Below are positions 2,623 through 17,460 of a DNA stretch of 64,000 bases, one piece after another. Numbering within the stretch: the first letter of the stretch is position 1; each line of letters starts with the position of its first letter. The position numbers and the translations under genes were made by a program. Under the pieces are notes generated by a model. That model saw nothing but the letters and a program-made list of their open reading frames with translations, was not told the DNA's origin and searched no databases. This DNA comes from Candidatus Curtissbacteria bacterium (GTDB taxonomy: Bacteria > Patescibacteriota > Microgenomatia > Curtissbacterales > GWA2-41-24). Location of the stretch: contig JANLHP010000022.1 of NCBI GenBank assembly GCA_024654445.1, positions 15,332 to 79,331 of the forward strand. The letters run 5' to 3'.

Positions 2623-4119
2623 ATGACAAAGATCGTAAAGATTCAACTCATTTTATTCTCAGCGTTATTGATATTATGGAATATTTTTACACCTATTCTA
2701 GAAGGCGCCGATGAATCCGGACATTTTTGTCACGCTGACTATATTGCGCATAAAGGGAAAATTCCTAACATTAAAATCCAAGACGGTTGCTATCTTTGGC
2801 ACCCACCATTCTATTATTCAATGTTGGCACCAATCATAAAAGTGTTTGGCTTGCCAGAGTATCCCCAAAGCCAATTAGAGATGAATCCCAACTTCAACTT
2901 ACTTAGAAAAGGAGAGTATTCTCAGTTTGTACACACTAAGGAAGAATTGATGCTTGGCTGGGGACGCCTCGAATTCTTAGTCCATACTTTAAGATTATTT
3001 TCTGTACTTTGCGCCATTGGCATCTTTTTGATTGCAGTTCAATTATTAAAATTCACCTTGAAAAACGAAAGCCAAAGAACCCTAAGCCTACTCTTTCTTT
3101 TCAACCCCATGTTTATTCATATTTTTACCACGCTTACAAACGTAACCCTATTAAGTTTTATTTCCGCACTTTTTCTTTTTATTGAATTAAAATACTTCAA
3201 AAGCTTAAAACCTGCAAAAATTCACGTCCTTCAAGGCTTTTTACTGGGTATCGGATTTTTAACTAAAATAACCTTCGTTGCAGCCGGAGCGTTCTATTTA
3301 AGTGTTGCTTTGTTAAAATTAAGAAACAGACCTGAAAGCCTTAGAAGAAGTGCAATAGAAATATTAATCTTTATATCGACTTTCATGATCGTCACTGGAT
3401 GGTACTTGGCAAGAGCTCTCACTCTTTATGACACGCCTCTGGAAATTAACGCGCTCACTCAAGCGCAAGGAGGAGACCACCATTTAGATCTTCTAGAAAA
3501 TATTGGCCCTTTAAATTATTGGAATAGTTTTGCCTTAACACTGTTTAGAACTTTTTGGTCTGGGTATGGAGCGCTGACAGTACGCTTTCCTGAAATATTA
3601 AATTTAGTTTTACTTATCAGCGTTATGCTCGTAATAATAGCAGCAATTAAAAAATGGAAAAGAACAAATGCTTACTTCAAATTGTCAGCACTTTACTTAG
3701 CGGTAACTTTCATAACTCTAATCATCGGAAATTTCACACTATCTGCAATGCATGCAAAGGATCTATTCCCCGCGTACTTACCAATCTCTTTCTTATTCGC
3801 TTATGGGGCGAGCAATTTGACAAAAGTATTTAAAAAAAACGGAAAAATGATTTTTTTGGGAATTCCCGTAGCGATCTATTTTTTTGCACAAAACGAAGTT
3901 GTTGGAATTCTAAAATTACTGTTCTTCCAAGAATCTCAAGGGGCTTACTTAAAACCTCTAATTGTTAAGGTGACGACTGTTCTAGCTCTGTATGGTCTTA
4001 TTTATCAAGGGCTAAAAAAATTAAAGATAAATAACAGGTGGCATATCAAAATTACGTTTACTTTATTTGTCGCCAATATTGTAATTCTAGCAATTTCCAC
4101 CTACTTATTTTACAGCTGA
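2623..4119 (+). CDS. Polytopic membrane protein, DUF2142/GT-C-like putative glycosyltransferase.
   Basis: An acidic DE-x-x-H motif in the first extracytoplasmic loop (ADESGHFCHADYIAH) and many TM helices. It is a paralog of the ORF at 58124..59707 (PDEQAHF). Confidence 0.45.
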   Translation: MTKIVKIQLILFSALLILWNIFTPILEGADESGHFCHADYIAHKGKIPNIKIQDGCYLWHPPFYYSMLAPIIKVFGLPEYPQSQLEMNPNFNLLRKGEYSQFVHTKEELMLGWGRLEFLVHTLRLFSVLCAIGIFLIAVQLLKFTLKNESQRTLSLLFLFNPMFIHIFTTLTNVTLLSFISALFLFIELKYFKSLKPAKIHVLQGFLLGIGFLTKITFVAAGAFYLSVALLKLRNRPESLRRSAIEILIFISTFMIVTGWYLARALTLYDTPLEINALTQAQGGDHHLDLLENIGPLNYWNSFALTLFRTFWSGYGALTVRFPEILNLVLLISVMLVIIAAIKKWKRTNAYFKLSALYLAVTFITLIIGNFTLSAMHAKDLFPAYLPISFLFAYGASNLTKVFKKNGKMIFLGIPVAIYFFAQNEVVGILKLLFFQESQGAYLKPLIVKVTTVLALYGLIYQGLKKLKINNRWHIKITFTLFVANIVILAISTYLFYS

Positions 4120-5045
4120 GGTTTTTTAATAATGTATTCAAGTTTCATCGGAAGAATTCCGACTTCAGAAAACGCAGCGCGCAGCAGCTTCTTCGGTAAA
4201 GAAATTAAAACTAGCAGCAGTTGATTTTTAGACCTTTTTTGGTTCCAGTGCTTTTTAATTTGTCCTGACAAGTCACGGTTGGCCTCGACAGACGACCACT
4301 CAATTTCTAGCTTGTTTGCTCTGCACAACCTTTCAATTAGCCTGTTGTTTGTGTAATTAAGCGAGAAAACAAAGTCTTTTACTACGGAGTAGTCTCTTTC
4401 TCTTACCCAATTAACCTTTCTAATATTTAAAAACTTCAACGCAAAAAGTGCCCACAGCGAAAAAACCCTCTTTGGCATTAAAGGAAAGTATGGTAAATGA
4501 TAATGTTGTTCTACAGGGAAAAAATAATTAGGACAACTCAAATATATAAATCCGCCAGGTTTTAATATTCTCGCAAGTTCCTTCAGAGACTTCTCCGGAT
4601 CTTGAACATGCTCCAAGACCTGAGAAAAGACGCATAGATCAACGACCCCACTTTTTAGAGGTATCTTTTCAGCGGTGCCATCAATTACTTTTAACCGCCC
4701 CTTTTTCTTTCGAAGCTTATTGTAATAGTACTTAATAATTTTTCTATCTTTAGTGCTTGGCTCTATCGCAACGACCTCAAATCCAAGCGATACTAAATTC
4801 AAAGAAAATTGCCCATATCCGGCCCCAATGTCTGCAATCAATCCCGGAGTTTTGTTCGTATTAGATAATATGTGCCTAACAGTCCTTGCCGTCAGCTTAA
4901 AGGACTCCGCGAAAAACTTTTCCAAAGACTCGGTCGACCCATTCCAATATTTGTTATTTAATTCAACCCATAGCTTATCTTTGTCTTCGGCCTTCGAATA
5001 CATTAAGTCGACCGGAAGATTTTTGCGTCGAGTATCAGAAGTCAT
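4110..5045 (-). CDS. Class I SAM-dependent methyltransferase.
   Basis: Motif I DIGAGYG, motif post-I VVAIEPS and motif II LKPGGFIYLS, as in the Methyltransf_11/12 family. Confidence 0.8.
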   Translation of the reverse strand: MTSDTRRKNLPVDLMYSKAEDKDKLWVELNNKYWNGSTESLEKFFAESFKLTARTVRHILSNTNKTPGLIADIGAGYGQFSLNLVSLGFEVVAIEPSTKDRKIIKYYYNKLRKKKGRLKVIDGTAEKIPLKSGVVDLCVFSQVLEHVQDPEKSLKELARILKPGGFIYLSCPNYFFPVEQHYHLPYFPLMPKRVFSLWALFALKFLNIRKVNWVRERDYSVVKDFVFSLNYTNNRLIERLCRANKLEIEWSSVEANRDLSGQIKKHWNQKRSKNQLLLVLISLPKKLLRAAFSEVGILPMKLEYIIKKPQL

Positions 5046-5068
5046 ATTTACTTAAATAAATTATTCAT

Positions 5069-5210
5069 GGACTAAAGCCCATGATTAGGCCCGGAATCAC
5101 ATTTAGTTACATAAATATGACGAGGACCGCATGGCACTGTAGGTTTTGACATTCGCTTAAAGAATCACTCTCAGCCTCAACTTGAAAGCTGGGGCTTCTC
5201 GCTCACAATA
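5069..5210 (+). repeat. Intergenic repeat element, copy A (forward). Its 3' part overlaps the C-terminal codons of the ORF 5177..6709.
   Basis: Shares ggactaaag..ttaggcccgga..GACGAGGACCGCAyGGCAyTGTA..ttttgaYATTCGCT..ctcgctcaYaata with copies at 17461, 35631 and 63582. Confidence 0.8.
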
Positions 5211-6709
5211 ACCTTGTTTATAAATTTGTCGATCTCCATAAAAGATTTGATGCCAAAAGCAGAAACATAATGATTCGAAAATTTATTTTGATAAAATCTC
5301 TGCCTTTTTAGTTTATTTTTGTCGTATAAAATCTTTTTAATGCCAACATCAATATCTTCAAGCTGATCAAATTTTATGTTTATCGAGCTCTTACTTTTAA
5401 CAAAAGGATCCCCGAATTTTCCAGACAGAAATGAATTATCGAAGTAGAGTGTTGGCTTATTTTTCAAAATTGCAATCAGACCCGCAGTTGTCGCGCCTGT
5501 TATTACAACGTCACTCTTATTAATAACATTTTCTACCTTACTTGAATTATCCACCTTTACATTTGCGGGAAGTTCCAGATCGTCAAGGTCGTCCCTTAAA
5601 GAATAAGAAGGGTGGTTTCTCAGAATAATTCTAAATCCCGAATCTAATTTTGAAAGCCCTTTAACTAGCTTTTCAATCGATTGTTTATTCGAGTACCTTA
5701 AAAAAAGAGACAAAGTTCCAAAAATAGGTGCCCATAAAACTAAAACGTTTATGATCTTTTTTTCTTTCAAGTTAACATGATTAATGTGTTTCGGCCTTTT
5801 ATAATACGGACAGCCGGCTATATATGCATTTTTAGGGTGGATCATTTTCGCCAGTCTGCCCCATACCAAATAATAATCAGAAAAGTAAAAATCAGATTCA
5901 ATTATTTCCCAGGTCGCTATTCCATGTTGAATTTCAGCAACCTTTATTCCAAATGACTTCGCCATTAAAGCAAAAGCTGAGCCAAATGTATCATTGCTCG
6001 TTGAAGTTAAAATAACTTGAGGTTTCGCTCGTAAATAAAGATAAAAGGCAAAATTTAAAAAAGAAACAATTTCAGGAAACAAAAAAAGCCTTAAATACCA
6101 TAATCTGAGCGTCCAGGGTCGACCGGCAAGAAGTGCATTCTCATTTTCTACCCGCCATCTTCTAAAGACAAAAAAAGATAAGGCTTTCAACCGCTCGCGT
6201 CGTGATTGGTACCTTTGAGTGTTGGTGAGATTTAAAAATGAAATATTGATACTTTTCAGATATTTTTGATCAACCTCTGTTATTTTCCCGACGACTAAAA
6301 CCTTCCTCCTCTTTGAGAGGTACTTAATGAGTGGCAAAAGACCACTTAGGTGCCTGCCGCTAGCCACTATTAAAACCTCAGATGCCACATGTGGCCATTT
6401 AATTTTTGCCCTTGGCGCCACAATCAATTTAAGAAGGTGAGTAAGCTTTGATGCATATTTAAGTGCCTTTCGGCCGGGACTTAAGGAGTAAGCAAACGTT
6501 TGTGGGTATTGTCCCCAAACGTCATCTATAGGCTGCTTTTGTAAAAGCGACGAAAAAAAATGATGCTGAGAGAAAGCCTGAATTTTTTCCAGTGATATGC
6601 CATAAAACTTATAATTATTATTCGGATAATACTTGGAGATCCAGTTTTTCGACAAATCAACTGAATAGTCGTACAAGTTTTTTGACTTATTAAATGAGGA
6701 AGCAATCAC
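5177..6709 (-). CDS. GT-B-like protein with an HP motif; putative CMP-ulosonic-acid (sialyl/Kdo-type) transferase. A TagF-like glycerophosphotransferase is the alternative.
   Basis: It carries an RNHPSY (HP) motif and a GCPYY motif, and is paralogous to 15055..16371 (RPHPW, GTPRFE). It lies between a methyltransferase and the nonulosonate synthase operon. Confidence 0.35.
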   Translation of the reverse strand: MIASSFNKSKNLYDYSVDLSKNWISKYYPNNNYKFYGISLEKIQAFSQHHFFSSLLQKQPIDDVWGQYPQTFAYSLSPGRKALKYASKLTHLLKLIVAPRAKIKWPHVASEVLIVASGRHLSGLLPLIKYLSKRRKVLVVGKITEVDQKYLKSINISFLNLTNTQRYQSRRERLKALSFFVFRRWRVENENALLAGRPWTLRLWYLRLFLFPEIVSFLNFAFYLYLRAKPQVILTSTSNDTFGSAFALMAKSFGIKVAEIQHGIATWEIIESDFYFSDYYLVWGRLAKMIHPKNAYIAGCPYYKRPKHINHVNLKEKKIINVLVLWAPIFGTLSLFLRYSNKQSIEKLVKGLSKLDSGFRIILRNHPSYSLRDDLDDLELPANVKVDNSSKVENVINKSDVVITGATTAGLIAILKNKPTLYFDNSFLSGKFGDPFVKSKSSINIKFDQLEDIDVGIKKILYDKNKLKRQRFYQNKFSNHYVSAFGIKSFMEIDKFINKVIVSEKPQLSS

Positions 6710-8250
6710 TTTTCTATTAGGTCCCAGGAAAGGGGGGTGCCGAGCTCTATATCGTAGAGTGCCCGACTGCCTATAATATCATCCCACTCTCGAGGAGGCA
6801 ATCCATTACTAGGTCTTACCGTTTTAATATTTCTTGAAGAGAATTTCTCACCCTTCTTAATATCCTTAGAGACAAAAATAGAAGGCCTAAACCGCATGTT
6901 ATATTCCTCGGCACTATTTAACGGGCCATATTTAACCTCGCCCTTCGCCCCTTCATTTCTTCTTATCTTTTTCACCATTTGCCCAAATTCTTCTGGCTCT
7001 AATGAAAATCTGGAGTCCGGCCCTCCGCGAGAGCGTTTTGTAATTAAATGCTTTTCAATGATTGAAGCACCCATAGTTGCCGCAATCGTTGGGGCTATGA
7101 TTCCCGCGTTGTTGTCGGAGAAACCGCTAACCACCCCAAACTTCTCCTGAAGGTCACCTATTGTCCTAAGATTCATGCTGGAAAGTAGGGGACTGGCAGA
7201 ATACTGAGTTACGCAATGCAAAAGAGCAATTTCACCAGAACCATATTTTTTTAACGTATCAACTGCAAGCTCAATTTCCCAAAGGGCCGCAAAACCAACA
7301 GACATAATGACGGGTTTTTTAGTTTGAGCAACCTTTCTTATTAAAGGAATGTCTACAACTTCATAAGAGGCGATCTTATAACAGGGAACCTTCAACTTTT
7401 CCAAAAAATCCACAGCGGTCTCGTCAAAGGGAGTTGAAAAAAAAATTAGGCCTAACTCTTCCGCAACTTTTTTGAGCTTAGTGTGCCACTCCCAGGGAGT
7501 ATAGGCAGTCTTATAAAGGTCGTAAAGCGTTTCATTCTTCCAAGCCTCAGGAGTCTTTTTGCCTCTGACAATAAACCATTCCTTATTCGACTTAAGTGTT
7601 ATTGTGTCAGGCGTGTACGTCTGAATCTTCACCGCGTCCGCTCCCGCTTCTGCGGCTGCTTTAATTAACCTTACAGCCTCCTCAAATTTTTGGTTATGAT
7701 TACCCGAAATTTCGGCAACGACAAAACAAGGGAATTGAGAACCAATACTCCTAGTTCCAAGTTTTATAAACGGTTTTTTAATATTTCCATATTTCTTTTT
7801 AAATAAAACCATTTCAATCGCCTTTTCTTTTTCCCTAGACTTCAGGCCCGTGCTCACAAAACCGGCGTCTAAAAAACTCTTTTTCGAGCTAATATTTATG
7901 GGCTTTATATATGCTCTGATTTCACGAAGAGCTGCGGAATTTTCAAAAGCATAATCACATGCTTTCTGAATTAAAACAGGACCGTATCCACGGCCGCGGT
8001 ACTTATTAACCAGAGAGATACTAATTTCGCCAACGTCTCTATTTAAATCAACTCTGACCTGACCGGCAGGAAGGCCGTCAACCTCCGCGACAAATAAGTA
8101 AGTATTTTTATCACCTAACTTACCCATAAACCACTTAGTGTGATCATCAAGCTTAACTGGGCTACTATTAAAGCTGTTTTCCTTGACAGTTGGATCATTC
8201 CTTAAGCTGTAAAAAAAGGCAAGATCAAATTTATTCGCTTTTCGCAGCAT
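6706..8250 (-). CDS. Fusion of a GNAT N-acetyltransferase and a NeuB-family nonulosonic acid synthase (PseH-PseI-like), with a C-terminal SAF domain. The ORF-track start at 8358 is probably too far upstream; the likely start is MLRKANKF.
   Basis: The N-terminus has GNAT motifs (RGRGYG). The middle section FVVAEISGNHNQKFEEA...AGADAVKIQTY is the NeuB/PseI TIM-barrel signature. The C-terminal SAF domain is present. Confidence 0.8.
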   Translation of the reverse strand: MLRKANKFDLAFFYSLRNDPTVKENSFNSSPVKLDDHTKWFMGKLGDKNTYLFVAEVDGLPAGQVRVDLNRDVGEISISLVNKYRGRGYGPVLIQKACDYAFENSAALREIRAYIKPINISSKKSFLDAGFVSTGLKSREKEKAIEMVLFKKKYGNIKKPFIKLGTRSIGSQFPCFVVAEISGNHNQKFEEAVRLIKAAAEAGADAVKIQTYTPDTITLKSNKEWFIVRGKKTPEAWKNETLYDLYKTAYTPWEWHTKLKKVAEELGLIFFSTPFDETAVDFLEKLKVPCYKIASYEVVDIPLIRKVAQTKKPVIMSVGFAALWEIELAVDTLKKYGSGEIALLHCVTQYSASPLLSSMNLRTIGDLQEKFGVVSGFSDNNAGIIAPTIAATMGASIIEKHLITKRSRGGPDSRFSLEPEEFGQMVKKIRRNEGAKGEVKYGPLNSAEEYNMRFRPSIFVSKDIKKGEKFSSRNIKTVRPSNGLPPREWDDIIGSRALYDIELGTPLSWDLIEK

Positions 8251-8260
8251 TAGCTTGCTG

Positions 8261-9388
8261 TCAATTTTTTTCTTCATCCCAAATATTATCTTTTTCCCAC
8301 TTCCCTTTGTTTTTTCTCCATACTCTCGCATCTCGAAATTGGTCAGCAGTTTTATCAAACTCTTTTTCCTTCATTCCGACATATTGCAACCATCGTTTGA
8401 GATCACGAGGTTTGACATGATCATATTTTCTTACCAAATCTATGGCTTTTTTTCTTGTAATATAACCGCTCCTTATATCTTTACATGCATGATCAGTAGC
8501 TCTTCCATAACCAAATTTGACAAACTTTAAATAGTCATGCACACCATTTTCATGCATGTCGTCAAGATTGGAAAATCTACGGTAAGTTCTGTCAAATGGC
8601 TTCTTAGATTGTTGCCAATTGTATAATCTTTGCATCAATTTGTATTGCTTATTTGCGTCCCAGTCAACGTAATTTCCTAAATATATACCTCTAACTTCAG
8701 ATTCCTCGAGTTCTTCTTCGGTCGGATATTTGGCCCAAAGCAAGTCTTGCTCCTTCAAACCTTCTTCACCTACCATATCGTACCAATCAAAGCCCCTTAA
8801 GGCGTGTTCAAACCTATACTTCGCTGTCATCTCGGGAAATTCATCTGCTCTATACATTCCCCCCAGGTCGGTATATCCATGTTCTCCCCAGACGATTAAC
8901 TTAATTTTAAATTTAACCGCAATTTGCACCGGATATGTAAAGATGCCGCAATGAGCATGCCAGTTCATGTCGCCCATCTTCTTGAAACAAATACGGTTCA
9001 GTTTAACCAAAACGTCAACATTAGGTTTGAATATGATGTGATCCACGTTAAACACATGATGCATACGATTCAAGTTATATTCTCCCTCAGGAAGATAATT
9101 ATTTCCGTGGTAAGTGACAAGAAGCGGTTTTAATTTTAATACCTTTGTAACATAGTGAGTTTGAAAGTAACTATCTTTCCCTCCGGAAACGGGAATAATG
9201 CAATCATAATTTGAGCCGTTAGAAACACGAGAGTCTTCTGCTAAACTCTCAAGTAATTTAGCCCTTTTTCTCCAATTAATTTTTTTCCGTGCTTCTGAAA
9301 CTCGGCAACCAGAACAAACTCCGTCATTGTCGAAAGTTAATTTAACAGCAGAGGAAATTGGGTAAACACATTTAGTACAGTACTGCAT
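8261..9388 (-). CDS. N-acetyl sugar amidotransferase (PseA/WbuX/LpsA family, PP-loop ATP pyrophosphatase).
   Basis: PP-loop SGGKDS and an N-terminal CxxC...C zinc-ribbon-like start (MQYCTKCVYP...GVCSGC). It is adjacent to HisH/HisF paralogs. Confidence 0.85.
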   Translation of the reverse strand: MQYCTKCVYPISSAVKLTFDNDGVCSGCRVSEARKKINWRKRAKLLESLAEDSRVSNGSNYDCIIPVSGGKDSYFQTHYVTKVLKLKPLLVTYHGNNYLPEGEYNLNRMHHVFNVDHIIFKPNVDVLVKLNRICFKKMGDMNWHAHCGIFTYPVQIAVKFKIKLIVWGEHGYTDLGGMYRADEFPEMTAKYRFEHALRGFDWYDMVGEEGLKEQDLLWAKYPTEEELEESEVRGIYLGNYVDWDANKQYKLMQRLYNWQQSKKPFDRTYRRFSNLDDMHENGVHDYLKFVKFGYGRATDHACKDIRSGYITRKKAIDLVRKYDHVKPRDLKRWLQYVGMKEKEFDKTADQFRDARVWRKNKGKWEKDNIWDEEKN

Positions 9389-9397
9389 AACTTATGT

Positions 9398-10192
9398 CTA
9401 AAACCTAACGTCCAGCCCAGCATCTACCATGAATTTTTTAGCGTGCCTTGTCGATTGCTCTGTGAAGTGAAAAATATTAGCTGCAGACACAGCACTCGCA
9501 CCGCCAATTTTTATACCGTCTACTAGATTTTGCCAGTTTCCAACGCCCCCGCAAGCAATCACAGGAACGTTAACTTTATTCGTAATTTGTTTTAAAAGAG
9601 GTAGATCATAACCCTTTAGAGTCCCATCTCTATCGATAGAATTCAAGAATATCTCGCCAGCTCCTAGTCTTTCTGCCCTTATCGCCCAAGACTTTGGGTC
9701 CAGACCGGTTGCTTCTGTGCCGTGATTTATAAAAACCTCATATTTATCCTTGCCAATAGTCTTCGCGTCAATAGAAACTACAACCGCTTGACTGCCAAAT
9801 AGCCTAGCCGCTTCGGTAATTAAAGAAGGATTTCTAACAGCCATAGTGTTGATAATAATTTTATCAACACCACTTTTAAATAAAATATGCATATCGTCAA
9901 CAGACTTGATACCTCCGCCCGCCGCCAGGGGAACGAAACAGGTTTTCGCGCACTCTTTTATAATTTCTACAAAATCCTCAAGCATCTTAAAGTTATAGTC
10001 AGTCCTAATCAACTTTTGATATTCCTTTGTTTTACTGATGTCCAAAAAAATTATTTCATCGACGGACCAAGCATTGAAGTATTGAATCGCAACCTTTGGA
10101 TTGCCGACGATCTGGTATTCAGAAAACTTCAGGCTCTTAACAAGCTGCCCATTCTGGAGAAGTAAGCATGGAGCGAGTCTCTTTTTAAGCAT
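9398..10192 (-). CDS. Imidazole glycerol phosphate synthase cyclase-subunit paralog (HisF-like, WbuZ-type).
   Basis: HisF (beta/alpha)8 signatures (LDISKT..., GGGIKS, ACGGVG). No other his genes are present, and it is coupled to the amidotransferase. Confidence 0.85.
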   Translation of the reverse strand: MLKKRLAPCLLLQNGQLVKSLKFSEYQIVGNPKVAIQYFNAWSVDEIIFLDISKTKEYQKLIRTDYNFKMLEDFVEIIKECAKTCFVPLAAGGGIKSVDDMHILFKSGVDKIIINTMAVRNPSLITEAARLFGSQAVVVSIDAKTIGKDKYEVFINHGTEATGLDPKSWAIRAERLGAGEIFLNSIDRDGTLKGYDLPLLKQITNKVNVPVIACGGVGNWQNLVDGIKIGGASAVSAANIFHFTEQSTRHAKKFMVDAGLDVRF

Positions 10193-10802
10193 CCTTAAAA
10201 TTTAGAAAATTTTCAAGAATTCTAAGACCACTTTTTTGACTACGCTCGGGGTGAAATTGGACTCCAAACAAATTATCCACCGCAACAGATGCTGTAAATT
10301 CCTCTCCGTATTCACAAGTTGCTGTCACTACGCCGCTTTCGTCAGGAGCTAAGCAGTAACTATGTATAAAATAAAAAACACTGGGTTTAACATTTTCAAA
10401 AAGAAGAGAGTTATCGGCGGGGTAAACGTCATTCCATCCAATGTGGGGTAGCCTGAAGTGTTTTTTGCTCACGCTCAATTTTCGAGTTTTACCCTTAACC
10501 CAACCCAAACCTTTATGCAATCCACCTTCTTCGCCGACTTCCGCCAGAAGTTGCATGCCTAAACATATACCCAAGAAGGCCTTTTTATTCTTCAGGACCT
10601 GCCCTTCCAATGTTTTTATAAGACCTCTCTCCGCCAGCTTATTCATGCCGTCACTAAAAGTTCCCACCCCGGGTAAAATTATATGAGTCGCTCTGTCAAA
10701 ATCTTTCGATTCCCTTGAAATTTTGCTCTCTGCACCTAAAGCATCCAAAGCGTTTTTTACCGAAGCTACATTCCCCATGTCATAGTCAACAATAATCACC
10801 AT
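10185..10802 (-). CDS. Glutamine amidotransferase HisH paralog (WbuY-type).
   Basis: Class I GATase catalytic triad region (GICLGMQLL, HPE near the C-terminus). Its start overlaps the HisF-like gene by 8 nt. Confidence 0.85.
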   Translation of the reverse strand: MVIIVDYDMGNVASVKNALDALGAESKISRESKDFDRATHIILPGVGTFSDGMNKLAERGLIKTLEGQVLKNKKAFLGICLGMQLLAEVGEEGGLHKGLGWVKGKTRKLSVSKKHFRLPHIGWNDVYPADNSLLFENVKPSVFYFIHSYCLAPDESGVVTATCEYGEEFTASVAVDNLFGVQFHPERSQKSGLRILENFLNFKDA

Positions 10803-11581
10803 TTGCGCAAGACCTTCCAAGACTGCTGTTCGAGTTTTATATTCAACATCGCGAGTTCTTGATTTTGGTCCAAATATCTAAGAACCTTTTTAACATCAAC
10901 AATCGCATTTTCCCTGAAGAAGTTATCATAAATTTTCCTCATTAACAATAAATCTTTTTCCCAGTCAACCGTCAGTCTGTAATTTCGGTAGTAGTTTGGA
11001 TCTAATTTTGGCGTCTTTCCTATAATAAACTCTCGATTTCGGTTAAACCACATATAAGGGGTCACATGTTCTTTCTCGTAGGAAGTTTTAGCGGCCCTAT
11101 AAGCCTTAAAAAGCGCATTAGAAGAAAATACTTCGACATCTAGGCCAATAGGCAAACTCCTTGTTACGTGGTCTGTGGTACTTAAATAATCAACTTTACC
11201 TCTTATAAATTCTCGAATACATACATCAATAATCTGGGGATCAATCAAGGGATTGTCGGCAGTTATCCTTACAATAATCCCGCAATCAAATTTTTTTGCG
11301 GTATTGTAAAATCTTGATAAAACGTTTTTCTTATTGCCACGAAAACATTGCAATTGTTCTTCTTTTGCGAACTTTTCTAGAATATCATTGTCTTTTGATC
11401 TAGGAATTGAAACAATAATATGCTTTATCCTTTTAGAATATTTTAATCTATTACAAATATGCCAAAGTAGAGGCTTTCCGGCTAATTCTGCCAAAATCTT
11501 GCCCGGTAGCCTCTCCGAATCAAATCTCGCTTGAATTATCGCACAAACGCTTTGTATATTATCCGTTCGTCCCCTCACCAT
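10796..11581 (-). CDS. Cytidylyltransferase of the CMP-nonulosonate synthetase type (PseF/SpsF-like).
   Basis: N-terminal AIIQARFDSERLPGKIL nucleotide-binding motif, typical of the acylneuraminate cytidylyltransferase/SpsF family. Confidence 0.7.
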   Translation of the reverse strand: MVRGRTDNIQSVCAIIQARFDSERLPGKILAELAGKPLLWHICNRLKYSKRIKHIIVSIPRSKDNDILEKFAKEEQLQCFRGNKKNVLSRFYNTAKKFDCGIIVRITADNPLIDPQIIDVCIREFIRGKVDYLSTTDHVTRSLPIGLDVEVFSSNALFKAYRAAKTSYEKEHVTPYMWFNRNREFIIGKTPKLDPNYYRNYRLTVDWEKDLLLMRKIYDNFFRENAIVDVKKVLRYLDQNQELAMLNIKLEQQSWKVLRKW

Positions 11582-12372
11582 GAAGTCCAGCCCCCATCAA
11601 CAACGAAATTCTCTCCTGTGATAAAACCGGAAGCATCACTTGAGAGCAGCGCAAACAAGCCTTTCAAGTCCTCGGGATTACCCAACTTATCAAGCATTGT
11701 CTTGCTTTTTAGCCTCTCACCGAATTTCTTGTCCCGAGCCACGTTTTCTTTAGGAAAAGGCCCTGGAGAAATTGAATTTACACGGATACCATACCTACCC
11801 CAGTAAGAAGCCAGATATTTTGTAAGCTGAATAATCCCCGCTTTGGCGATTGTGTACGTCGGTGGAATATTGAAATTATTGTCAGTGTATAGCCTCCAAT
11901 CCGGCGATTGAAGTCCGTACATTGAAGATATATTAATAATTGAACCTTTCGCCTCTCTCTTCATAAGAGGGAAAACAAGCTGGCTGCACCTCAGTGTACT
12001 CCAAAGAACACCGTTTAAACTACTCTCAAATTCGTCATAAGCTAAGTTGGTGGATACCTTTTCCTGATGAATAGCGTTATTTATAAGAATGGCTATGGAC
12101 GGGAGCCCTTTTATTTCATTGGAAAACTTAAGAAAAGAATTGCTGCTTGTAAAATCCAAGTCTTTAACAATAACTCTGGATTCTCCAAATTCCTTGAGCA
12201 ATCCACGAGCGACGGTAGCTCTTTTTTTAGCAGTCTTCTGCGTTGTAGTTACAACAACAGTTGCTCCTAATTCAAGAAGTGTTTCTGTCGCGGCTAAGCC
12301 TAAATGTCCCAAACCACCCGTCACAATCGCTGTCCTATTTTCTAAACTGATTAAGTCCGCCAGGCTTCTCAT
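11575..12372 (-). CDS. Short-chain dehydrogenase/reductase (SDR).
   Basis: TGGLGHLG Rossmann motif, NAIH, and YTIAKAG (YxxxK) active site. Confidence 0.75.
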   Translation of the reverse strand: MRSLADLISLENRTAIVTGGLGHLGLAATETLLELGATVVVTTTQKTAKKRATVARGLLKEFGESRVIVKDLDFTSSNSFLKFSNEIKGLPSIAILINNAIHQEKVSTNLAYDEFESSLNGVLWSTLRCSQLVFPLMKREAKGSIINISSMYGLQSPDWRLYTDNNFNIPPTYTIAKAGIIQLTKYLASYWGRYGIRVNSISPGPFPKENVARDKKFGERLKSKTMLDKLGNPEDLKGLFALLSSDASGFITGENFVVDGGWTSW

Positions 12373-13274
12373 AGCTGCAAGTTCCAACAGGCAGGGTTTG
12401 TGTACTTCTCTTCCAAAATGGGAATGCGTTGTGCAAGTTTATCAAATACTACTTGATCAATGTGAGCCTCAAAAGCAGACACGTCCGTCTCTAACTGTTT
12501 TGGCGAGGTTATCCCTATTACTAAAGGACCAAAGTTCTTGTTTGCAATGAATTGAATAAGTAACTCTTCGCGCGGTACTTTATATGAGTCCAAATATTTA
12601 TAGAACGTGTTCAGCTTACCCTTTACGTCCCCAAAGTATTCCGGTAAATTTTTAGTGCTCATCAGTAGCACTCCTTGAAGAAACACACTCCTTTGAACAA
12701 TGAGCTTACCCTTTTTCTGCAGTAATTTCATTTTGCCTTGGCTTTCAAAGTCCCGACTTAGGATATTATGGGGGATTTGATAAACATCAATCTCATCATA
12801 TTTAAGCGCTCTGTCCACATCTCCTGGATCATATAAGGAGATACCGATATATCTGATTAGACCCCGCTTTTTATAGTCATATAAAATATCCAAAAAAATA
12901 TCAGGATTTGCAAAAAAACCTTCGAAATCGTGGATATAAATAATATCCAAATGCTTTCTGTGAAGTCGACCCAGAGAAGTCTTCAACGAGTCCAAAATTT
13001 CCTTAGAGGAATCTTTAGATTTAAACGCAGTCAGCTTAGTGGCAATTATTACATTTCGTCTTCCAAGAACTTCCCCTATTATTTTTTCACTCCCCCCGTA
13101 GCTACTCGCAGTGTCAAAAAAGTTAATTCCGCGGTCAAGTGCAGCGTTTAGTATACACTTGGTTGTGTTCGTTGAAACTTGGTTCTTATTGGCGATACCG
13201 TATTGTTGTCCAAATTGAGCGCATCCCAAACAAAAGGAAGAAAGCTCTAAATCTTTGTATTTAAATACATTCAT
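12369..13274 (-). CDS. Aldo/keto reductase.
   Basis: AKR TIM-barrel signatures (FFDTASSYGGSE, IGISLYDP). Confidence 0.8.
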   Translation of the reverse strand: MNVFKYKDLELSSFCLGCAQFGQQYGIANKNQVSTNTTKCILNAALDRGINFFDTASSYGGSEKIIGEVLGRRNVIIATKLTAFKSKDSSKEILDSLKTSLGRLHRKHLDIIYIHDFEGFFANPDIFLDILYDYKKRGLIRYIGISLYDPGDVDRALKYDEIDVYQIPHNILSRDFESQGKMKLLQKKGKLIVQRSVFLQGVLLMSTKNLPEYFGDVKGKLNTFYKYLDSYKVPREELLIQFIANKNFGPLVIGITSPKQLETDVSAFEAHIDQVVFDKLAQRIPILEEKYTNPACWNLQL

Positions 13275-13933
13275 GTTAAATCTTTTTTCATAAAATATTT
13301 TATAATTTTACCAATTTCGGATTTAATTTCCTCTGGATTCATTCCTCTTCTGTCTAGTAGAAAAAATTCGTAATCTTTTTTACCCAAATACTTTCGCGCA
13401 TATCTTGCAGATCGCGGGCCGTGGTATGCATGAGTGACAATGGCCAACTTTTTAAAATTTAATTTACCCAACTCTTTAAATTGGTCAAGCGTTGAAATTA
13501 GAGGGACTGGGGGCATATTAGACAACTTTATTACGTTTGAAGAATCAATGTTTTTTGCCAGTTTTCTCATCAAATCATTTTGTGCTTCAGTGCCTGTTAA
13601 AACTAACTTTGGGCCCCGGCTACTAAAACTTGCTAGCTTCTTATAGATCGTAAGCCCGTAAGCTGTTCGTTGTTCTGTGTCTCTTAAATTTGTTTTAAGT
13701 GCCGGATCACCGCTTTCACCCGAAAGTATAGCAACAGCTTCAATTCCAGCATCGATTTTGGGATCAACAGAGTTTCTTACTGATTCGAATTCTTGCTTTA
13801 ATTTATTTTCGACTTCAAGAAAATCCAGGCCTATCAGGCCTCGGATGAATTGAAGAGAAAACATACTTTTGAGCCTGAAAGGCGAATATCGAGGGCTTTT
13901 AGCCCTCGGAAGTTTATCTCGAATATTCACCAA
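13271..13933 (-). CDS. DUF218/YdcF-like protein.
   Basis: LAIVTHAYHGPRSARYARK resembles the conserved DUF218 motif. Confidence 0.4.
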   Translation of the reverse strand: MVNIRDKLPRAKSPRYSPFRLKSMFSLQFIRGLIGLDFLEVENKLKQEFESVRNSVDPKIDAGIEAVAILSGESGDPALKTNLRDTEQRTAYGLTIYKKLASFSSRGPKLVLTGTEAQNDLMRKLAKNIDSSNVIKLSNMPPVPLISTLDQFKELGKLNFKKLAIVTHAYHGPRSARYARKYLGKKDYEFFLLDRRGMNPEEIKSEIGKIIKYFMKKDLT

Positions 13934-15071
13934 TCACATCCTTAAAAGTTTTTATTACATAATCTATTTGTTTTTTTGACAAATCCGGAAAAAGCGGTAA
14001 CGAGATTTCCGATTCATAAACAGATTCGGAAATTGGAAAATCACCTCTTTTAAATCCAAATTTTTTTCGATAATATGGCTGAAGATGGACGGGAATATAA
14101 TGGACCTGAACACCGAGCCCTCGATCCTTCAGCTCGTCAAAAATCCTCTTCCTTGAAACTTTAATCTCGTCCAGCTTTAAAAGCGCAGTAAACAAATGCC
14201 AAACGGCAAAACTAGAATTGTTTTCCTTCGGCACATCAATAGGCAAGTCACTAAATGCTTTCCTATACACATCAACGACCAATCTACGCGCTCCAATGAA
14301 CCTTTCTATCCTCGAGAGTTGTGACACACCAAGGGCGGCTTGAAAATCGGTTAGTCGAAAATTTAAACCAAGTTCCTGCATCTCATAATACCAACCGCCA
14401 ACATTATTTTGTAAATTCTTTCTTGTGATCCCATGGTTTCTAAAAATAAGAAGCTTTTCCCATAACTTTTTGTCGTTTGTGACCGCCATACCTCCTTCAC
14501 CAGTCGTTATTGTTTTAACAGGATGGAAAGAAAAACATGTTATATCAGCAATTGTTCCTATCATCCTCCCTTTATATTTAGAGCCGATCGAGTGAGCCGC
14601 GTCATCAATTGTTACAAGGCCATAATTTTTAGCGATTCTTTTGATTCTATCCCAATCACAGGGATTACCGGCGAAATCAACCGCCAAAATCGCCTTTGTC
14701 TTCTTATTTATCGCCTGCTCAATCCGATCAGCATTAATGTTTAAGGTTGCAAAGTCAATGTCGACGAATTTGGGAATTCCTCCGAACCAGACAAAACAAT
14801 TGCTTGATGCTGCGAATGTGTAAGGTGTGGTTATTACTTCATCGCCCGAACCGATTCCGGAGGCGAAACAACTTGCAACAAGAGCGGATGCGCCGGAATT
14901 AAACGCTACAGCGTATTTTGCTCCGACGTAATTCGCAACCGCATTTTCAAATTCAAGAACCTCGGGTCCTTGGGTAATAAAATCAGATTTTAAAACTCTG
15001 GTCACTGCCTCGATATCTTTCTGGTTAATCGATTGGTGAGAGTAGGGGATCAGCTTAAGCGGTCTTTTCAT
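13914..15071 (-). CDS. DegT/DnrJ/EryC1-family PLP aminotransferase (PseC-like UDP-4-keto-sugar transaminase).
   Basis: SFHPVKTITTGEGGMAVTN contains the PLP Lys and is typical of the sugar aminotransferase class. Confidence 0.85.
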   Translation of the reverse strand: MKRPLKLIPYSHQSINQKDIEAVTRVLKSDFITQGPEVLEFENAVANYVGAKYAVAFNSGASALVASCFASGIGSGDEVITTPYTFAASSNCFVWFGGIPKFVDIDFATLNINADRIEQAINKKTKAILAVDFAGNPCDWDRIKRIAKNYGLVTIDDAAHSIGSKYKGRMIGTIADITCFSFHPVKTITTGEGGMAVTNDKKLWEKLLIFRNHGITRKNLQNNVGGWYYEMQELGLNFRLTDFQAALGVSQLSRIERFIGARRLVVDVYRKAFSDLPIDVPKENNSSFAVWHLFTALLKLDEIKVSRKRIFDELKDRGLGVQVHYIPVHLQPYYRKKFGFKRGDFPISESVYESEISLPLFPDLSKKQIDYVIKTFKDVIGEYSR

Positions 15072-16371
15072 TCTCCTTCTGGATAATTGTCTCGCATAAC
15101 CTTTTCAGATTTAAAGAATAATTCCTTGTATCTTCCGAAAGATAATAGTTGAGATTGCTATATTTACTCTTAGAATTAACCTTTGCATTAGAAATGTTGG
15201 GATTATTAAATATGTACTTCAACTTTTCTATTTTGTCGACAATTATGACATTTGGTAACTGTTCGATTTTCCGGAAATGTTCATAATATTTAAAAGCGTT
15301 TTTCGGCGATGTTAGATGAATTCCATCATCGTAAGTAATAACAAAAACTTTTTTATTAAAAATTAGCCCTTCAATCAGCATTGTAGATAGGGGACATATC
15401 ATAAACTCCATATTAGAAAGAAGCCTTGGATAATAATCCAAGCCCGGGATAATATTGTTCTGCTCCCTTTTGTAATAAGCTCTGGCATCAGTGTCTAAAA
15501 TAACATTTTTAAAATCCCAATCAAAAAATGTATCAAAAGATTTTCGTGGATGTCTCCAAGGATGTGGCCTGTAAACGATCTTAATTTGATCCTCTAAATG
15601 ACTTATTATTCCATCAAGCTCCCTCAAAGTTGAAATCTCGTCAAAAGGAATTGCATTGCCCGAAAAAAGAGCAAAGCGGAATGGGTAAGGAGAAGGTAGC
15701 TTTTCACTCCTTTGCCGAAAATAGCTTTCAAATCTCGGCGTCCCAAGAACAAAGACTCTCTCGCGGTCGACGTTATGAATTCTCATAGTATGTTCGACCG
15801 ACTGTTTTCCCCAAACAGCCAAGTAATCCGGACGTCTTGTAAATATCGTCTTGCTGCAAAGATTGTCCCAATTATCAATTAAAAGGCATACCGGAATTTG
15901 ATACTTTTTTGCAATCCTAATAAACTCAAAAGTGACACCTTCAAATCCGCTTGATGGGATTAAAATTAAGGATGGTTTAGTTTTTTCAATTAACTCTTCC
16001 AATTCTTTATCTTTAGTACCAAGAAAAACGTAAAGTTTAAATAAGTCATAAATAACAGGAAATGAGAGCAGTGAGTATTTAATCTTAAGAAATTTAGGCA
16101 GCCTCATAAAACGGAACTTAAAAGTTAAACTCCTATTTCCGTATCTTCGGGTATTTGTGTTGAATAAGTGAAAATGTAGTCTTGCCTTTTCTTTTGAGTA
16201 AGAGAATTCTAAAACTCTATCCCTTTTAGCCTGAGGAATTTGCTTTCGTGTCAAATCCTTATTTAAAAGAAAAGTGCAGTCGGCTTTAATTTCAGAAAGG
16301 CAATTAGAAGTTATATAGTTTCTATAATACTCGTTCGTATTTATAACAAAGACAATGTTATTTTTAGACAT
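15055..16371 (-). CDS. GT-B-like protein with an HP motif, paralogous to 5177..6709; putative CMP-ulosonate transferase or TagF-like transferase.
   Basis: RPHPWRHP and GTPRFE motifs. It is embedded in the Pse-type operon between the aminotransferase and the 4,6-dehydratase. Confidence 0.35.
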   Translation of the reverse strand: MSKNNIVFVINTNEYYRNYITSNCLSEIKADCTFLLNKDLTRKQIPQAKRDRVLEFSYSKEKARLHFHLFNTNTRRYGNRSLTFKFRFMRLPKFLKIKYSLLSFPVIYDLFKLYVFLGTKDKELEELIEKTKPSLILIPSSGFEGVTFEFIRIAKKYQIPVCLLIDNWDNLCSKTIFTRRPDYLAVWGKQSVEHTMRIHNVDRERVFVLGTPRFESYFRQRSEKLPSPYPFRFALFSGNAIPFDEISTLRELDGIISHLEDQIKIVYRPHPWRHPRKSFDTFFDWDFKNVILDTDARAYYKREQNNIIPGLDYYPRLLSNMEFMICPLSTMLIEGLIFNKKVFVITYDDGIHLTSPKNAFKYYEHFRKIEQLPNVIIVDKIEKLKYIFNNPNISNAKVNSKSKYSNLNYYLSEDTRNYSLNLKRLCETIIQKENEKTA

Positions 16372-16380
16372 AAAACGAAG

Positions 16381-17376
16381 TTAATAACCTGCGCCATCTG
16401 AAGCTATATCAGAAATAAGTGTTTTAATCTTCTCCGCGCTAAGCCATTTGTTATTGTTGTCGCTGCTATACATAAATCCGTCAACTGGCTTCTTTTTAAC
16501 TTTACTGCTACCGGCCCACCAGTCGAATTCCGGTTCAATTAAAAAATAGTTCTTAAATTCCCTTGTATGTCTTGATTCGTCAAAACTAATCAACGCTTCG
16601 TGGAGCTTTTCACCGGGTCTTATTCCAACAATTCTAATTTTAGAATTTGGAGAAATAGCCTTTGCAACTTCAGTAATCCTGACACTTGGAATTTTTGGTA
16701 CGAATATCTCTCCGCCCTTCATTTTTCCAAGTGTATTTATAACCAGCTCAACCCCCTGCTCCAAGGTAATCCAGAATCTTGTCATTCTAATGTCGGTTAT
16801 CGTAATGTGATTATTTTTCGCTTGAGAAATAAAAACAGGAACAACACTACCACGCGAGCCCATTACATTTCCGTACCTTACAACACTAAACTTCGTACTC
16901 TTTTCCCCTCCATAAGAATTCGCTTGAATGAAAATTTTCTCGGCAACCATTTTAGTGGCACCGTATAAGTTTACTGGAGAAACTGCTTTATCTGAAGAAA
17001 TTAAAATAACTTTTGAAACATTTTCATCAAGCGAAGCCTCAATGACATTCTCACTCCCCATAATGTTTGTGTGAATTGCTTCAAAAGGGTTATACTCTAA
17101 AAGAGGCACCTGCTTAAGGGCCGCGGCGTGTATTACATAATCTACGCCAACAATTGCTCGCTTTAATCTTCTTAAGTCCCTTACATCTCCCAATAAAAAT
17201 CTTAACCTTTTGTCTCCCTGATATTTCGCCATAAGTGCGTGTTGCTTAAATTCATCCCTGGAATAAATTCTAATAACACCCTTAAAAGTTTTTTGCGAAA
17301 GTAGATGAGCGATAAATGCTTTTCCAAATGATCCAGTGCCGCCTGTTAGAAGAATTGTTTGTTTTGTTAAATTCAT
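16381..17376 (-). CDS. pseB: UDP-N-acetylglucosamine 4,6-dehydratase (PseB/FlaA1/CapD family).
   Basis: LLTGGTGSFGKAF Rossmann motif and YGATKMVAEK catalytic YxxxK. Length and domain order match PseB/FlaA1. Confidence 0.8.
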   Translation of the reverse strand: MNLTKQTILLTGGTGSFGKAFIAHLLSQKTFKGVIRIYSRDEFKQHALMAKYQGDKRLRFLLGDVRDLRRLKRAIVGVDYVIHAAALKQVPLLEYNPFEAIHTNIMGSENVIEASLDENVSKVILISSDKAVSPVNLYGATKMVAEKIFIQANSYGGEKSTKFSVVRYGNVMGSRGSVVPVFISQAKNNHITITDIRMTRFWITLEQGVELVINTLGKMKGGEIFVPKIPSVRITEVAKAISPNSKIRIVGIRPGEKLHEALISFDESRHTREFKNYFLIEPEFDWWAGSSKVKKKPVDGFMYSSDNNNKWLSAEKIKTLISDIASDGAGY

Positions 17377-17460
17377 GAAGTCAAAAGTCTCCGTATTTTA
17401 TGCGAATTGTTGCCACATTTACAAGGTGATCACATAAAGTACAGCTCAGAAGTTACTTTA

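Follow-up and report, generated by a model that had tools for sequence, protein, structure and literature searches.

A 13-gene operon in Candidatus Curtissbacteria, a member of the CPR/Patescibacteria, probably (roughly 0.65) specifies an acetamidino-modified pseudaminic acid that is activated with CMP and attached to a surface glycan. That the core of the sugar is of the Pse type and bears an acetamidino group is very likely. The operon lacks PseG, and a DUF218 protein may stand in for it. The host is uncultured and tiny, and the window, which here means the whole 64-kb stretch of DNA that was analysed, is taken from a MAG. The operon lies on the minus strand and runs from 17376 to 4110; its about 13 co-directional genes overlap for the most part (Table 1). 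All genes named in an earlier, sequence-only reading are found in the window, each on the minus strand, but the interval given there takes in only five of the co-directional genes. The core gene set recurs syntenically in many loci, for instance L001, L031, L046, L049, and L053. The scanned ORFs of the window included no flagellar genes.

Table 1. Genes of the operon, in the direction of transcription.
Gene	Coordinates	Strand	Remarks
pseB	16381..17376	-	operon gene 1; UDP-GlcNAc 4,6-dehydratase (inverting)
U438	15055..16371	-	438 aa, GT-B fold, no Pfam family
pseC	13914..15071	-	UDP-4-amino-4,6-dideoxy-β-L-AltNAc aminotransferase
DUF218/YdcF-family gene	13271..13864	-	197 aa from ATG; ORF reaches 13933
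AKR (aldo/keto reductase)	12369..13274	-	Pfam Aldo_ket_red, 149 bits
SDR (short-chain dehydrogenase/reductase)	11575..12387	-	Pfam adh_short_C2, 131 bits
cytidylyltransferase	10796..11581	-	Pfam CTP_transf_3, 112 bits
HisH-type glutamine amidotransferase (WbuY-like)	10185..10820	-	TIGR01855, 235 bits; Pfam GATase
HisF paralogue (WbuZ/AglZ-like)	9398..10192	-	best model WbuZ TIGR03572
WbuX/PseA-type N-acetyl-sugar amidotransferase	8261..9388	-	TIGR03573
GNAT::PseI fusion	6706..8277	-	one ORF; longest open frame begins at 8358
U510	5177..6709	-	510 aa, probable GT-B glycosyltransferase
class I SAM methyltransferase	4110..5045	-	Pfam Methyltransf_11, 74 bits; final co-directional gene

By family membership PseB and PseC would convert UDP-GlcNAc to UDP-4-amino-4,6-dideoxy-β-L-AltNAc, and PseI would condense the free hexose with PEP. 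The expected PseB- and PseC-like enzymes are indeed found upstream together with a cytidylyltransferase, and both pass their equivalog cut-offs (PseB, TIGR03589, 467.7 bits against 407.75; PseC, TIGR03588, 476 bits against 423.5). The pseB product also matches Pfam Polysacc_synt_2. The GNAT domain and PseI are encoded by one uninterrupted ORF (8358→6706), and the claim that the two are translationally fused stands. Translation probably starts at the ATG at 8277 or at that at 8250, since the stretch 8358-8261 is shared with the upstream gene. The domains of the ORF are GNAT at aa 36-173 (47 bits with Pfam Acetyltransf_3), NeuB at 231-475, and SAF at 492-549. The synthase part reaches 434 bits with the PseI model TIGR03586 (cut-off 340), while it stays at 286 bits with the NeuB model TIGR03569 (cut-off 400), and it is thus not a housekeeping NeuB. 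The public record contains only the PseI part of 368 aa (P0001, 100% identical), so the fusion is missing from the deposited annotation. The GNAT domain scores 26 bits with the PseH model TIGR03585 (cut-off 93), has relatives (59 bits) in the GNAT halves of the PseG::PseH fusions found in Bacteroidota (L031, L036), and has SpeG-like proteins as its nearest solved relatives. As a PseH analogue it would perform the N-acetylation.

One N-acetyl group, at N5 or N7, would be converted to an acetamidino group by the PP-loop amidotransferase, HisH as the glutaminase and ammonia donor, and the HisF paralogue, again as judged by family membership. The amidotransferase obtains 346 bits with its model (cut-off 203), and the HisH translation shows the motifs GICLGMQ and HPE. 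The HisF paralogue scores 276 bits with the WbuZ model, just missing the cut-off of 299.7, 243 with AglZ/HisF2, and 241 with hisF. In an alignment to HisF-LUCA (4EVZ), it has a Leu at the position of HisF Asp11 (CLDV→CLLL), a catalytic residue of HisF, while Asp130 is retained. Judged from these scores and this replacement, the HisF paralogue is a predicted partner of HisH and WbuX and not a histidine-pathway cyclase, and the pair does not represent a true histidine pathway. The three genes adjoin the fused gene as had been described, but since the operon is transcribed from right to left they are situated upstream of it, not downstream. The amidination would occur at or near the level of the CMP-sugar, as has been suggested for Campylobacter. 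PseA has been described as a CMP-Pse5Ac7Am acetamidino-synthase (PMC13317340), and the Am modification has been placed at the CMP-sugar stage (PMC13317340, PMC5378307).

The cytidylyltransferase gives no match to the PseF model TIGR03584, and in the PDB it matches 6OEW 'Cytidylyltransferase' best (E 3.8e-31). A protein of this CTP_transf_3 type is the sole cytidylyltransferase of the minimal cluster L047, and it adjoins the amidotransferase trio in L001, L006, L007, L008, L031, L046, and L049. As it is found without AKR or SDR in L001, L046, and L047, it is probably a general CMP-Pse synthetase. It is presumed to be a CMP-pseudaminate synthetase outside the PseF family, and would be the enzyme making the CMP-sugar.

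No role had been assigned to the AKR and the SDR. Together with the cytidylyltransferase they have a published precedent in EpaA and EpaB of an Acinetobacter baumannii prophage, which convert Pse5Ac7Ac to 8-epi-Pse5Ac7Ac (PMC12053666). EpaA is a CTP_transf_3::Aldo_ket_red fusion (PMC12053666), while EpaB is an adh_short_C2 SDR of 262 aa. These three domains are found in the window too, in neighbouring but separate genes (AKR, then SDR, then cytidylyltransferase), and the likeness is one of domain architecture only. The AKR may be a tailoring reductase with EpaA's C-terminal domain as its counterpart, and the SDR (143 bits with NCBIfam PRK09186, against 255) is a candidate EpaB- or PtmA-like oxidoreductase. 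They might form a redox pair that 8-epimerises the sugar or tailors it otherwise; 8-epimerisation as such, argued from shared architecture, must be regarded as doubtful. Other pse loci also contain an AKR: L009 and L033, where it adjoins the cytidylyltransferase, and also L027, L028, and L034.

The two GT-B paralogues U438 and U510 are probably Pse transferases and would transfer the CMP-sugar. Both lie within a NulO biosynthesis locus and weakly match the model of BFO_1060, one of the Tannerella forsythia NulO transferases (Tanf_01245, TFUB4_00887, BFO_1060); with 29-34 bits (U510 33.7) against a cut-off of 200 they are candidate members at most. U510 also gives a weak match (30.6 bits) to TIGR04396, a surface carbohydrate biosynthesis protein. 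It is weakly related to a family of ~500 aa in which the members that were tested have Pfam Capsule_synth. This Capsule_synth-like family joins pse genes in many loci whether PseG is present or not (e.g. the PseG-positive L031). An orthologue of U510 has the same position in L046, where it is followed by an orthologue of the methyltransferase. The methyltransferase might act in tailoring, either of the sugar or of the glycan.

A PseG-like hydrolase had been reported as missing, and this holds for the entire window: a jackhmmer profile made from PseG sequences of related loci found none among all ORFs of at least 60 aa in the 64 kb, and no TIGR03590 match was obtained for the 40 ORFs scanned with NCBIfam (137-43037). 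The DUF218 gene, previously listed as an extra without an assigned role, turns out to take, as a conserved feature, the place of PseG in the pse clusters of CPR bacteria. Its Pfam score is marginal (27.0 bits against 27.6). Ten contexts were recovered for its subfamily, every one of them a pse cluster; the gene directly follows pseC in eight of them, and in the other two the contig begins at the DUF218 gene. Among 39 loci ascertained by PseI, PseG is found in 12, DUF218 in nine, and a TIM-barrel family in six, and no locus has two of these. The cluster L047 consists of only six genes, encoding PseB, cytidylyltransferase, PseC, DUF218, PseI, and GNAT. It has one gene for each canonical step, which leaves DUF218 for the PseG step.

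DUF218 is further found fused to PseC (P0254, whose PseC part is 59% identical to that of the window), to NeuB/SAF (P0308), to cytidylyltransferases in both orders (L044, L052, P0255, P0264, P0268, P0304), and to GNAT (L008). The last of these has its counterpart in the PseG::PseH fusions of L031 and L036. PseG and DUF218 thus share pathway position and fusion partners (GNAT, cytidylyltransferase), but there is no relationship in sequence or fold, PseG (TIGR03590) being a two-domain GT-B enzyme and DUF218 a single YdcF-like α/β domain. Helicobacter pylori HP0326 is a PseF::PseG fusion. Other DUF218 proteins are E. coli YdcF, SanA, and ElyC, of which SanA and ElyC are membrane-anchored and periplasmic. 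In contrast to these two, the protein of the window belongs to a nucleotide-sugar pathway and its translation, judged by eye, has no obvious N-terminal hydrophobic segment, so that a cytoplasmic location is likely. The essential Thr and His of SanA are kept, while the third residue, E182, has no aligned acidic counterpart. On balance, gene context and fusions point to DUF218 as a putative non-homologous substitute for PseG, which would strip UDP from UDP-2,4-diacetamido-2,4,6-trideoxy-L-altrose.

It is unlikely that the genome has a canonical PseG gene in another place and that DUF218 has another job in the pathway, such as tailoring, regulation, or hydrolysis of another diphosphate-linked intermediate. 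Only 64 kb of the genome, from a contig of 97.9 kb, were examined, so PseG could lie outside them; the pse genes of some organisms, Helicobacter among them, are dispersed, and three loci with GNAT-PseI fusions (L001, L043, L045) have neither gene within reach. However, the same profile detected PseG within ±10 kb in none of the 15 loci counted as Patescibacteria/CPR (including L008, labelled only 'bacterium') but in 12 of the 24 remaining loci, these 12 being non-CPR. The strict mutual exclusion of PseG and DUF218, the single gene per step in L047, and the fusions of DUF218 to four types of Pse-pathway enzymes also argue for a substitution. A competing candidate for UDP removal is U438, encoded between pseB and pseC, since its best structural neighbours are hydrolysing NDP-sugar 2-epimerases; it would then be a PseG analogue or even a hydrolysing 2-epimerase, with DUF218 as an accessory. 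This, too, is improbable. Most pse loci that lack PseG are without this family, the window, L046, and L052 being the only ones in which it was detected. In L056 a member has a cytidylyltransferase on either side; this is another cluster, of the NeuB type, and neither pseB nor pseC adjoins the gene. Pfam Epimerase_2 and the NeuC models give no match to U438, whereas the BFO_1060 family gives the weak one mentioned above, and the family consensus of U438 includes RPHPW, which is similar to the HP motif described for the transferases of Tannerella. U438 is probably a CMP-nonulosonate glycosyltransferase, with a PseG-like hydrolase as the alternative.

The structural likeness of U438 to LegG/NeuC-type enzymes and the lack of PseG could also be read in favour of a GDP-dependent legionaminic-acid-like route to Leg5Am7Ac, the variant suggested by the sequence-only reading. 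This is highly improbable, as the equivalog cut-offs are passed by PseB (an inverting enzyme), by PseC, and by PseI but not by LegB (TIGR04180, 64 bits against 475), LegC (231 against 420), or NeuB, and the operon has no sequence match to NeuC/LegG and no PtmE-like guanylyltransferase gene. Of the CMP-acetamidino-nonulosonates then predicted, acetamidino-pseudaminic acid remains the best prediction. An artefact of assembly or sequencing, in which a lost stop codon joins GNAT to PseI, is likewise very unlikely, although the sequence is from a MAG annotated by NCBI with the PseI part only, and the closest relative found, L046, has the two as separate genes 4 nt apart. The ORF of the window shows no frame disruption, and its junction aligns uninterruptedly with independently sequenced fused homologues (P0002, P0006, P0007, P0009; 520-530 aa, 50-55% identity). 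The same in-frame fusion with aligned linkers occurs in independent metagenomes (P0002-P0009, L001, L044, L045), and L043 has the opposite order, PseI::GNAT.

The flagellar glycosylation locus of C. jejuni has the same PseB, PseC, and PseI core, with a PseA/WbuX-type amidotransferase and HisH/HisF paralogues beside the synthase, and the same product class, CMP-acetamidino-pseudaminic acid (there CMP-Pse5Ac7Am). The Campylobacter locus comprises pseB, pseC, pseH, pseG, pseI, and pseF with pseA-hisH-hisF. The window differs in lacking PseG, in having a different GNAT that is fused to PseI and a cytidylyltransferase outside the PseF family, in the additional DUF218, AKR, SDR, and two GT-B genes, and in its CPR host. 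The parts list is nearly that of the O-antigen cluster of Legionella pneumophila serogroup 6/12, Lp6_762-772, whose block contains GNAT, cytidylyltransferase, HisF, HisH, an 'LPS biosynthesis protein', an AKR-like oxidoreductase, DegT, and CapD (PMC3694923). That cluster, however, has PseG and a class-III aminotransferase, and neither DUF218 nor a GNAT-synthase fusion. The three-protein amidotransferase module is also shared with WbuX/WbuY/WbuZ of E. coli O145, WbpG/HisH2/HisF2 of P. aeruginosa, and AglX/Y/Z of Methanococcus, where, unlike in the window, the substrates are hexosamine or uronic-acid derivatives.

A non-homologous replacement of PseG would be typical of the pse clusters of CPR bacteria, and it gives the uncharacterised DUF218/YdcF family a testable function.

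The genes under study form a co-directional run on the minus strand from position 17376 down to 4110, most of them overlapping (see the table). The sequence-only reading had drawn the operon at 6706-11581, a stretch that holds only the fusion gene and those for the WbuX-type amidotransferase, the HisF and HisH paralogues and the cytidylyltransferase. When 3800-18000 was scanned for promoters and terminators, 41 promoter-like (34±6 expected) and 13 terminator-like sites (12±4 expected) were found; both counts are at chance level, and the sites were not used for defining the ends of the operon. The operon adds a new member to a well-known class, the clusters for pseudaminic acid (Pse) with an acetamidino group, and resembles those of Campylobacter and of Legionella serogroup 6 (PMC3694923). 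Its architecture is new in three respects: a fusion joins GNAT and PseI, the cytidylyltransferase comes from outside the PseF family and, above all, a DUF218 gene stands in the place of PseG, the canonical UDP-sugar hydrolase.

Genes of the operon in order of transcription, and two gene families of related loci
Feature	Position	Strand	Remark
pseB	16381-17376	-	transcribed first
U438 (438 aa)	15055-16371	-	second
pseC	13914-15071	-	third
DUF218 gene	13271-13864/13933	-	fourth, right after pseC
aldo/keto reductase (AKR)	12369-13274	-	fifth
SDR	11575-12387	-	sixth
CTP_transf_3 cytidylyltransferase (CT)	10796-11581	-	seventh
hisH-like	10185-10820	-	eighth
hisF-like	9398-10192	-	ninth
WbuX-type amidotransferase	8261-9388	-	tenth
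GNAT::PseI fusion	6706-8277	-	eleventh
U510 (510 aa)	5177-6709	-	twelfth
methyltransferase	4110-5045	-	last co-directional gene
~255-aa family	L020:8491-9255, L021:9204-9974, L030:9192-9980, L028:6485-7273, L024:82-858, L007:6991-7794		
second, divergent NeuB-like gene	L007:792-1883, L008:5207-7024, L043:6214-7269, L053:8653-9700		

The core enzymes are those of the Pse pathway. PseB, an inverting UDP-GlcNAc 4,6-dehydratase (TIGR03589; 467.7 bits, cut-off 407.75), PseC (TIGR03588; 476 bits, cut-off 423.5) and PseI (TIGR03586; 433.9 bits, cut-off 340.25) all pass their models. The models for LegB (64 bits against 475), LegC (231 against 420) and, on the synthase, NeuB (286 against 399.65) fail, and scans of the operon gave no match to the NeuC model and no PtmE-like match. 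The GDP-dependent legionaminic-like route that had been suggested from the sequence is therefore rejected; by the same scores PseB is of the inverting rather than the retaining type, and the synthase is not a housekeeping NeuB.

The fusion of GNAT and synthase, also part of that reading, is real. The open reading frame is uninterrupted, with the GNAT at amino acids 36-173 and the NeuB and SAF domains at 231-549, and its junction aligns with independently found fused homologues of 520-530 amino acids from other metagenomes (P0002-P0009), the loci of such homologues including L001, L044 and L045. The opposite order, PseI::GNAT, is present in L043. In L046, the closest relative found, GNAT and PseI are separate genes 4 nt apart, which argues that the fusion is recent and recurrent. 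In GTDB genomes, many tblastn matches that seemed to span the whole fusion were in fact two neighbouring genes (PseI followed by GNAT or the reverse); the true fusions were obtained from metagenome protein matches. The best database match to the synthase is a 100% identical, 368-aa 'pseudaminic acid synthase [Candidatus Curtissbacteria bacterium]' (P0001) encoded on a 97.9-kb MAG contig, which places the window in a genome of the Candidate Phyla Radiation (Patescibacteria). For 6706-8358 the deposited annotation consists of this PseI only, starting at an internal Met, so that the GNAT half lies outside the annotated protein. The GNAT domain, for which the PDB offers SpeG-like proteins as the best relatives, fails the PseH model (TIGR03585; 26.2 bits, cut-off 93.1). 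L031 and L036 encode PseG::PseH fusions whose GNAT half, itself below the PseH cut-off, is related to it, and because of this relationship the domain is treated as a putative functional analogue of PseH.

The PseF model (TIGR03584) does not match the cytidylyltransferase of the operon, which is recognized by CTP_transf_3 and KdsB-like models only; elsewhere in the window, at 30008-30745, a PseF-like gene reaches 120.5 bits (cut-off 205.7). In Acinetobacter, EpaA (SBS22546.1), a fusion of CTP_transf_3 and Aldo_ket_red, and EpaB (SBS22545.1), an SDR of the adh_short_C2 family, turn Pse5Ac7Ac into its 8-epimer (PMC12053666). The same three domains are found in the operon, but in neighbouring genes, and this match, which is one of architecture only, suggests by analogy that AKR, SDR and CT could perform an 8-epimerisation or a similar redox tailoring step. 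A tblastn search of a phage collection with the AKR, aimed at EpaA, returned generic aldo/keto reductases only. Since CT occurs without AKR or SDR in L001, L046, and L047, it is probably a general CMP-Pse synthetase.

The predicted acetamidino-forming trio was largely borne out. The WbuX PP-loop N-acetyl-sugar amidotransferase passes its model with 346.1 bits (TIGR03573; cut-off 203.2), and the adjacent HisH, a class I glutamine amidotransferase, scores 235 bits with TIGR01855. The HisF paralogue is matched best by WbuZ (TIGR03572), at 276.1 bits just under the cut-off of 299.7, and scores 243 against 310 with AglZ (NF038364) and 241 against 294.55 with hisF (TIGR00735). Asp11 and Asp130 are the catalytic residues of the HisF cyclase; the paralogue has Leu at the Asp11 position (CLDV to CLLL), keeps Asp130, and carries a 12-residue insertion. 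No equivalog of the histidine pathway scored above its cut-off among the window ORFs scanned, where the sole his-related matches were HAD/histidinol-phosphatase-type models on the GmhB-like half of 36392-37699, and a true histidine pathway is rejected. The genes for CT, HisH, HisF, and WbuX overlap or abut in that order, and this synteny, in the same order or permuted, is kept in more than 10 pse loci. In the literature PseA is described as the CMP-Pse5Ac7Am acetamidino-synthase and its modification is assigned to the CMP-sugar stage (PMC13317340; PMC5378307), which fits the constant adjacency of cytidylyltransferase and trio. A divergent second NeuB-like gene accompanies the cytidylyltransferase and the WbuX/HisH/HisF module in several loci, and in L008 it forms one protein of 606 amino acids with the cytidylyltransferase.

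PseG was sought with a profile made from two PseG::PseH fusions, those of L031 and L036, confirmed by NCBIfam at 163 and 195 bits (cut-off 153.6). The profile recovers 13 PseG genes in 12 loci from outside the Candidate Phyla Radiation (CPR), and matches neither any window ORF of at least 60 amino acids nor any CPR locus; TIGR03590 likewise had no match in the NCBIfam scans of window ORFs. The lack of a PseG-like gene noticed earlier thus holds within the 64-kb window. Among 39 loci ascertained only via PseI, PseG was found in 12, DUF218 in nine, and an AP_endonuc_2 TIM-barrel family in six, and no locus had two of them. By a hypergeometric hand calculation, PseG and DUF218 would fail to overlap by chance with a probability of about 0.02, a figure confounded by phylogeny since every locus with DUF218 is CPR or CPR-like. 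A DUF218 gene encoding about 224 amino acids adjoins pseI in six CPR loci, immediately upstream in five of them (two scanned members score 55-62 bits with Pfam), while three further CPR or CPR-like loci have more divergent DUF218 genes near pseI.

The DUF218 protein of the window, named 'YdcF family protein' by NCBI (P0121), belongs to a small subfamily: a search of 1.84 billion proteins yields 190 cluster representatives at E <= 1e-3. Every recovered context of this subfamily (L046-L048, L049-L055; 10 of 10) is a pse cluster; the gene directly follows pseC in eight, and the contig begins at it in the other two. L047 encodes PseB, CT, PseC, DUF218, PseI, and GNAT, six genes for the six canonical steps, and this leaves the PseG step for DUF218. 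Several fusions tie DUF218 to enzymes of the pathway. P0254 is a PseC::DUF218 protein whose PseC part is 59% identical to that of the window, and P0308 a NeuB/SAF::DUF218 protein whose synthase part shares just 32% identity with the window PseI. The GNAT::DUF218 fusion in L008 mirrors PseG::PseH, and fusions with CT in both orders (L044, L052, P0255, P0264, P0268, P0304) mirror the PseF::PseG fusion of H. pylori. Distant members of the subfamily (P0299, of 510 amino acids, P0309, P0324, and P0327) are fused to NUDIX or NAD-dependent nucleotide-sugar epimerase/dehydratase domains, which are further links of DUF218 to nucleoside-diphosphate-sugar chemistry.

The window protein itself is a marginal match to PF02698 (27.0 bits, gathering score 27.6); those of related pse clusters score 30.7-62 bits. 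A fold search showed the YdcF fold and was the only source of the link: when PDB sequences were searched with a profile built from three DUF218 subfamilies, nothing matched, not even YdcF. In an alignment with E. coli SanA, T125, H148, and R151 of the window protein correspond to SanA T125, H149, and R152, while SanA E182 is unmatched, being aligned with R154. The residues that SanA cannot do without are a Thr-His-Glu set, T125 and H149 (PMC12176290) together with E182. No link between DUF218 and pseudaminic acid was found in the papers searched, where the biochemical function of the family is described as unknown.

The main rival for the PseG role, ranked second, is U438, a GT-B-fold protein without a Pfam family, which provides the only structural resemblance to NeuC in the operon. 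However, its distribution is restricted, in L056 its family is flanked on both sides by cytidylyltransferases and has neither pseB nor pseC alongside, and it weakly matches a family of Tannerella NulO transferases. U510, a probable GT-B glycosyltransferase, is a weak paralogue of U438 and weakly related to a Capsule_synth-like family of about 500 amino acids, which accompanies pse genes with or without PseG; neither U438 nor U510 had more than chance-level matches when the PDB was searched by sequence. Judged by its genomic context, its mutual exclusivity with PseG, and the several fusions, the DUF218 protein would fill the PseG role with a probability of about 0.55-0.6. That it represents a new, non-homologous class of UDP-sugar hydrolase replacing PseG in CPR bacteria is given even odds.

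A family of about 255 amino acids is found in six PseG-less pse loci, and its two scanned members, from L020 and L021, match AP_endonuc_2, a xylose-isomerase-like TIM barrel. Among the hosts are a Dependentiae bacterium, Elusimicrobium posterum, a Planctomycetota MAG, and a Treponemataceae MAG. The gene sits directly between pseC and GNAT/pseI in L020, L021, and L030, and in the loci examined it never occurs together with PseG or DUF218; it may be a third, independent PseG substitute.

Nearly all window ORFs scanned belong to a sugar- or glycan-related family or have no family match, and the host genome is expected to be very small. A second ulosonic-acid-like module lies at 28070-34571 on the minus strand, with a NeuB-like synthase (NeuB 305 against 400, PseI 231 against 340), a KdsC/KDN-9-P-phosphatase-like HAD protein, an SDR, an aldehyde dehydrogenase, a transketolase, and the PseF-like cytidylyltransferase; the same module is also present in the CPR loci L046 and L056. 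CDP-hexose pathway genes at 19363-28083 (glucose-1-phosphate cytidylyltransferase, CDP-glucose 4,6-dehydratase-like, RfbH/E1) occur with an acetolactate-synthase-like TPP enzyme, a 4-hydroxy-2-oxovalerate aldolase, and an acylating acetaldehyde dehydrogenase, and together they may lead to a sugar of the branched or 3,6-dideoxy type, which is unusual in a CPR genome. At 35790-42242 a GDP-heptose set (GmhA, an HddC::GmhB fusion, an HddA-like kinase) is accompanied by two GDP-fucose-synthase-like reductases, an RmlC-like epimerase, and an FkbM methyltransferase, a combination that suggests a heptose in modified or deoxy form. Further glycan genes at 43063-58089 encode another AKR, two split transketolases, a TPP enzyme, an E1 dehydrogenase, three NDP-sugar dehydratases/epimerases, a DegT aminotransferase, and a GT2, and a Wzm/Wzt-type ABC transporter is found at 50748-52894. 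The operon is flanked by large polytopic membrane proteins, candidates for glycan transfer outside the membrane: those at 17712-19394 (-) and 59689-60849 (+) match PMT_2 (ArnT/PMT-like glycosyltransferases), that at 58124-59707 matches DUF2142, and that at 2623-4119 (+) has no family match.

A genome-reduced CPR bacterium gives at least 64 kb to complex surface sugars, which bears on the interaction between episymbiont and host. If DUF218 does replace PseG, the DUF218 superfamily would gain its first assigned biochemical activity, and Pse biosynthesis across the CPR would prove to be overlooked by annotation pipelines that demand PseG. Pse pathways are drug and vaccine targets and are used in chemoenzymatic synthesis, where a small single-domain PseG substitute would be a new biocatalyst. 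SanA, ElyC, and YdcF have known envelope phenotypes, and for the DUF218 family to which they belong the operon supplies a defined substrate that can be used in a simple in vitro assay. By analogy, periplasmic SanA and ElyC might then cleave diphosphate-linked sugar intermediates, such as the undecaprenyl-PP-linked precursors of peptidoglycan and ECA, which would account for their phenotypes.
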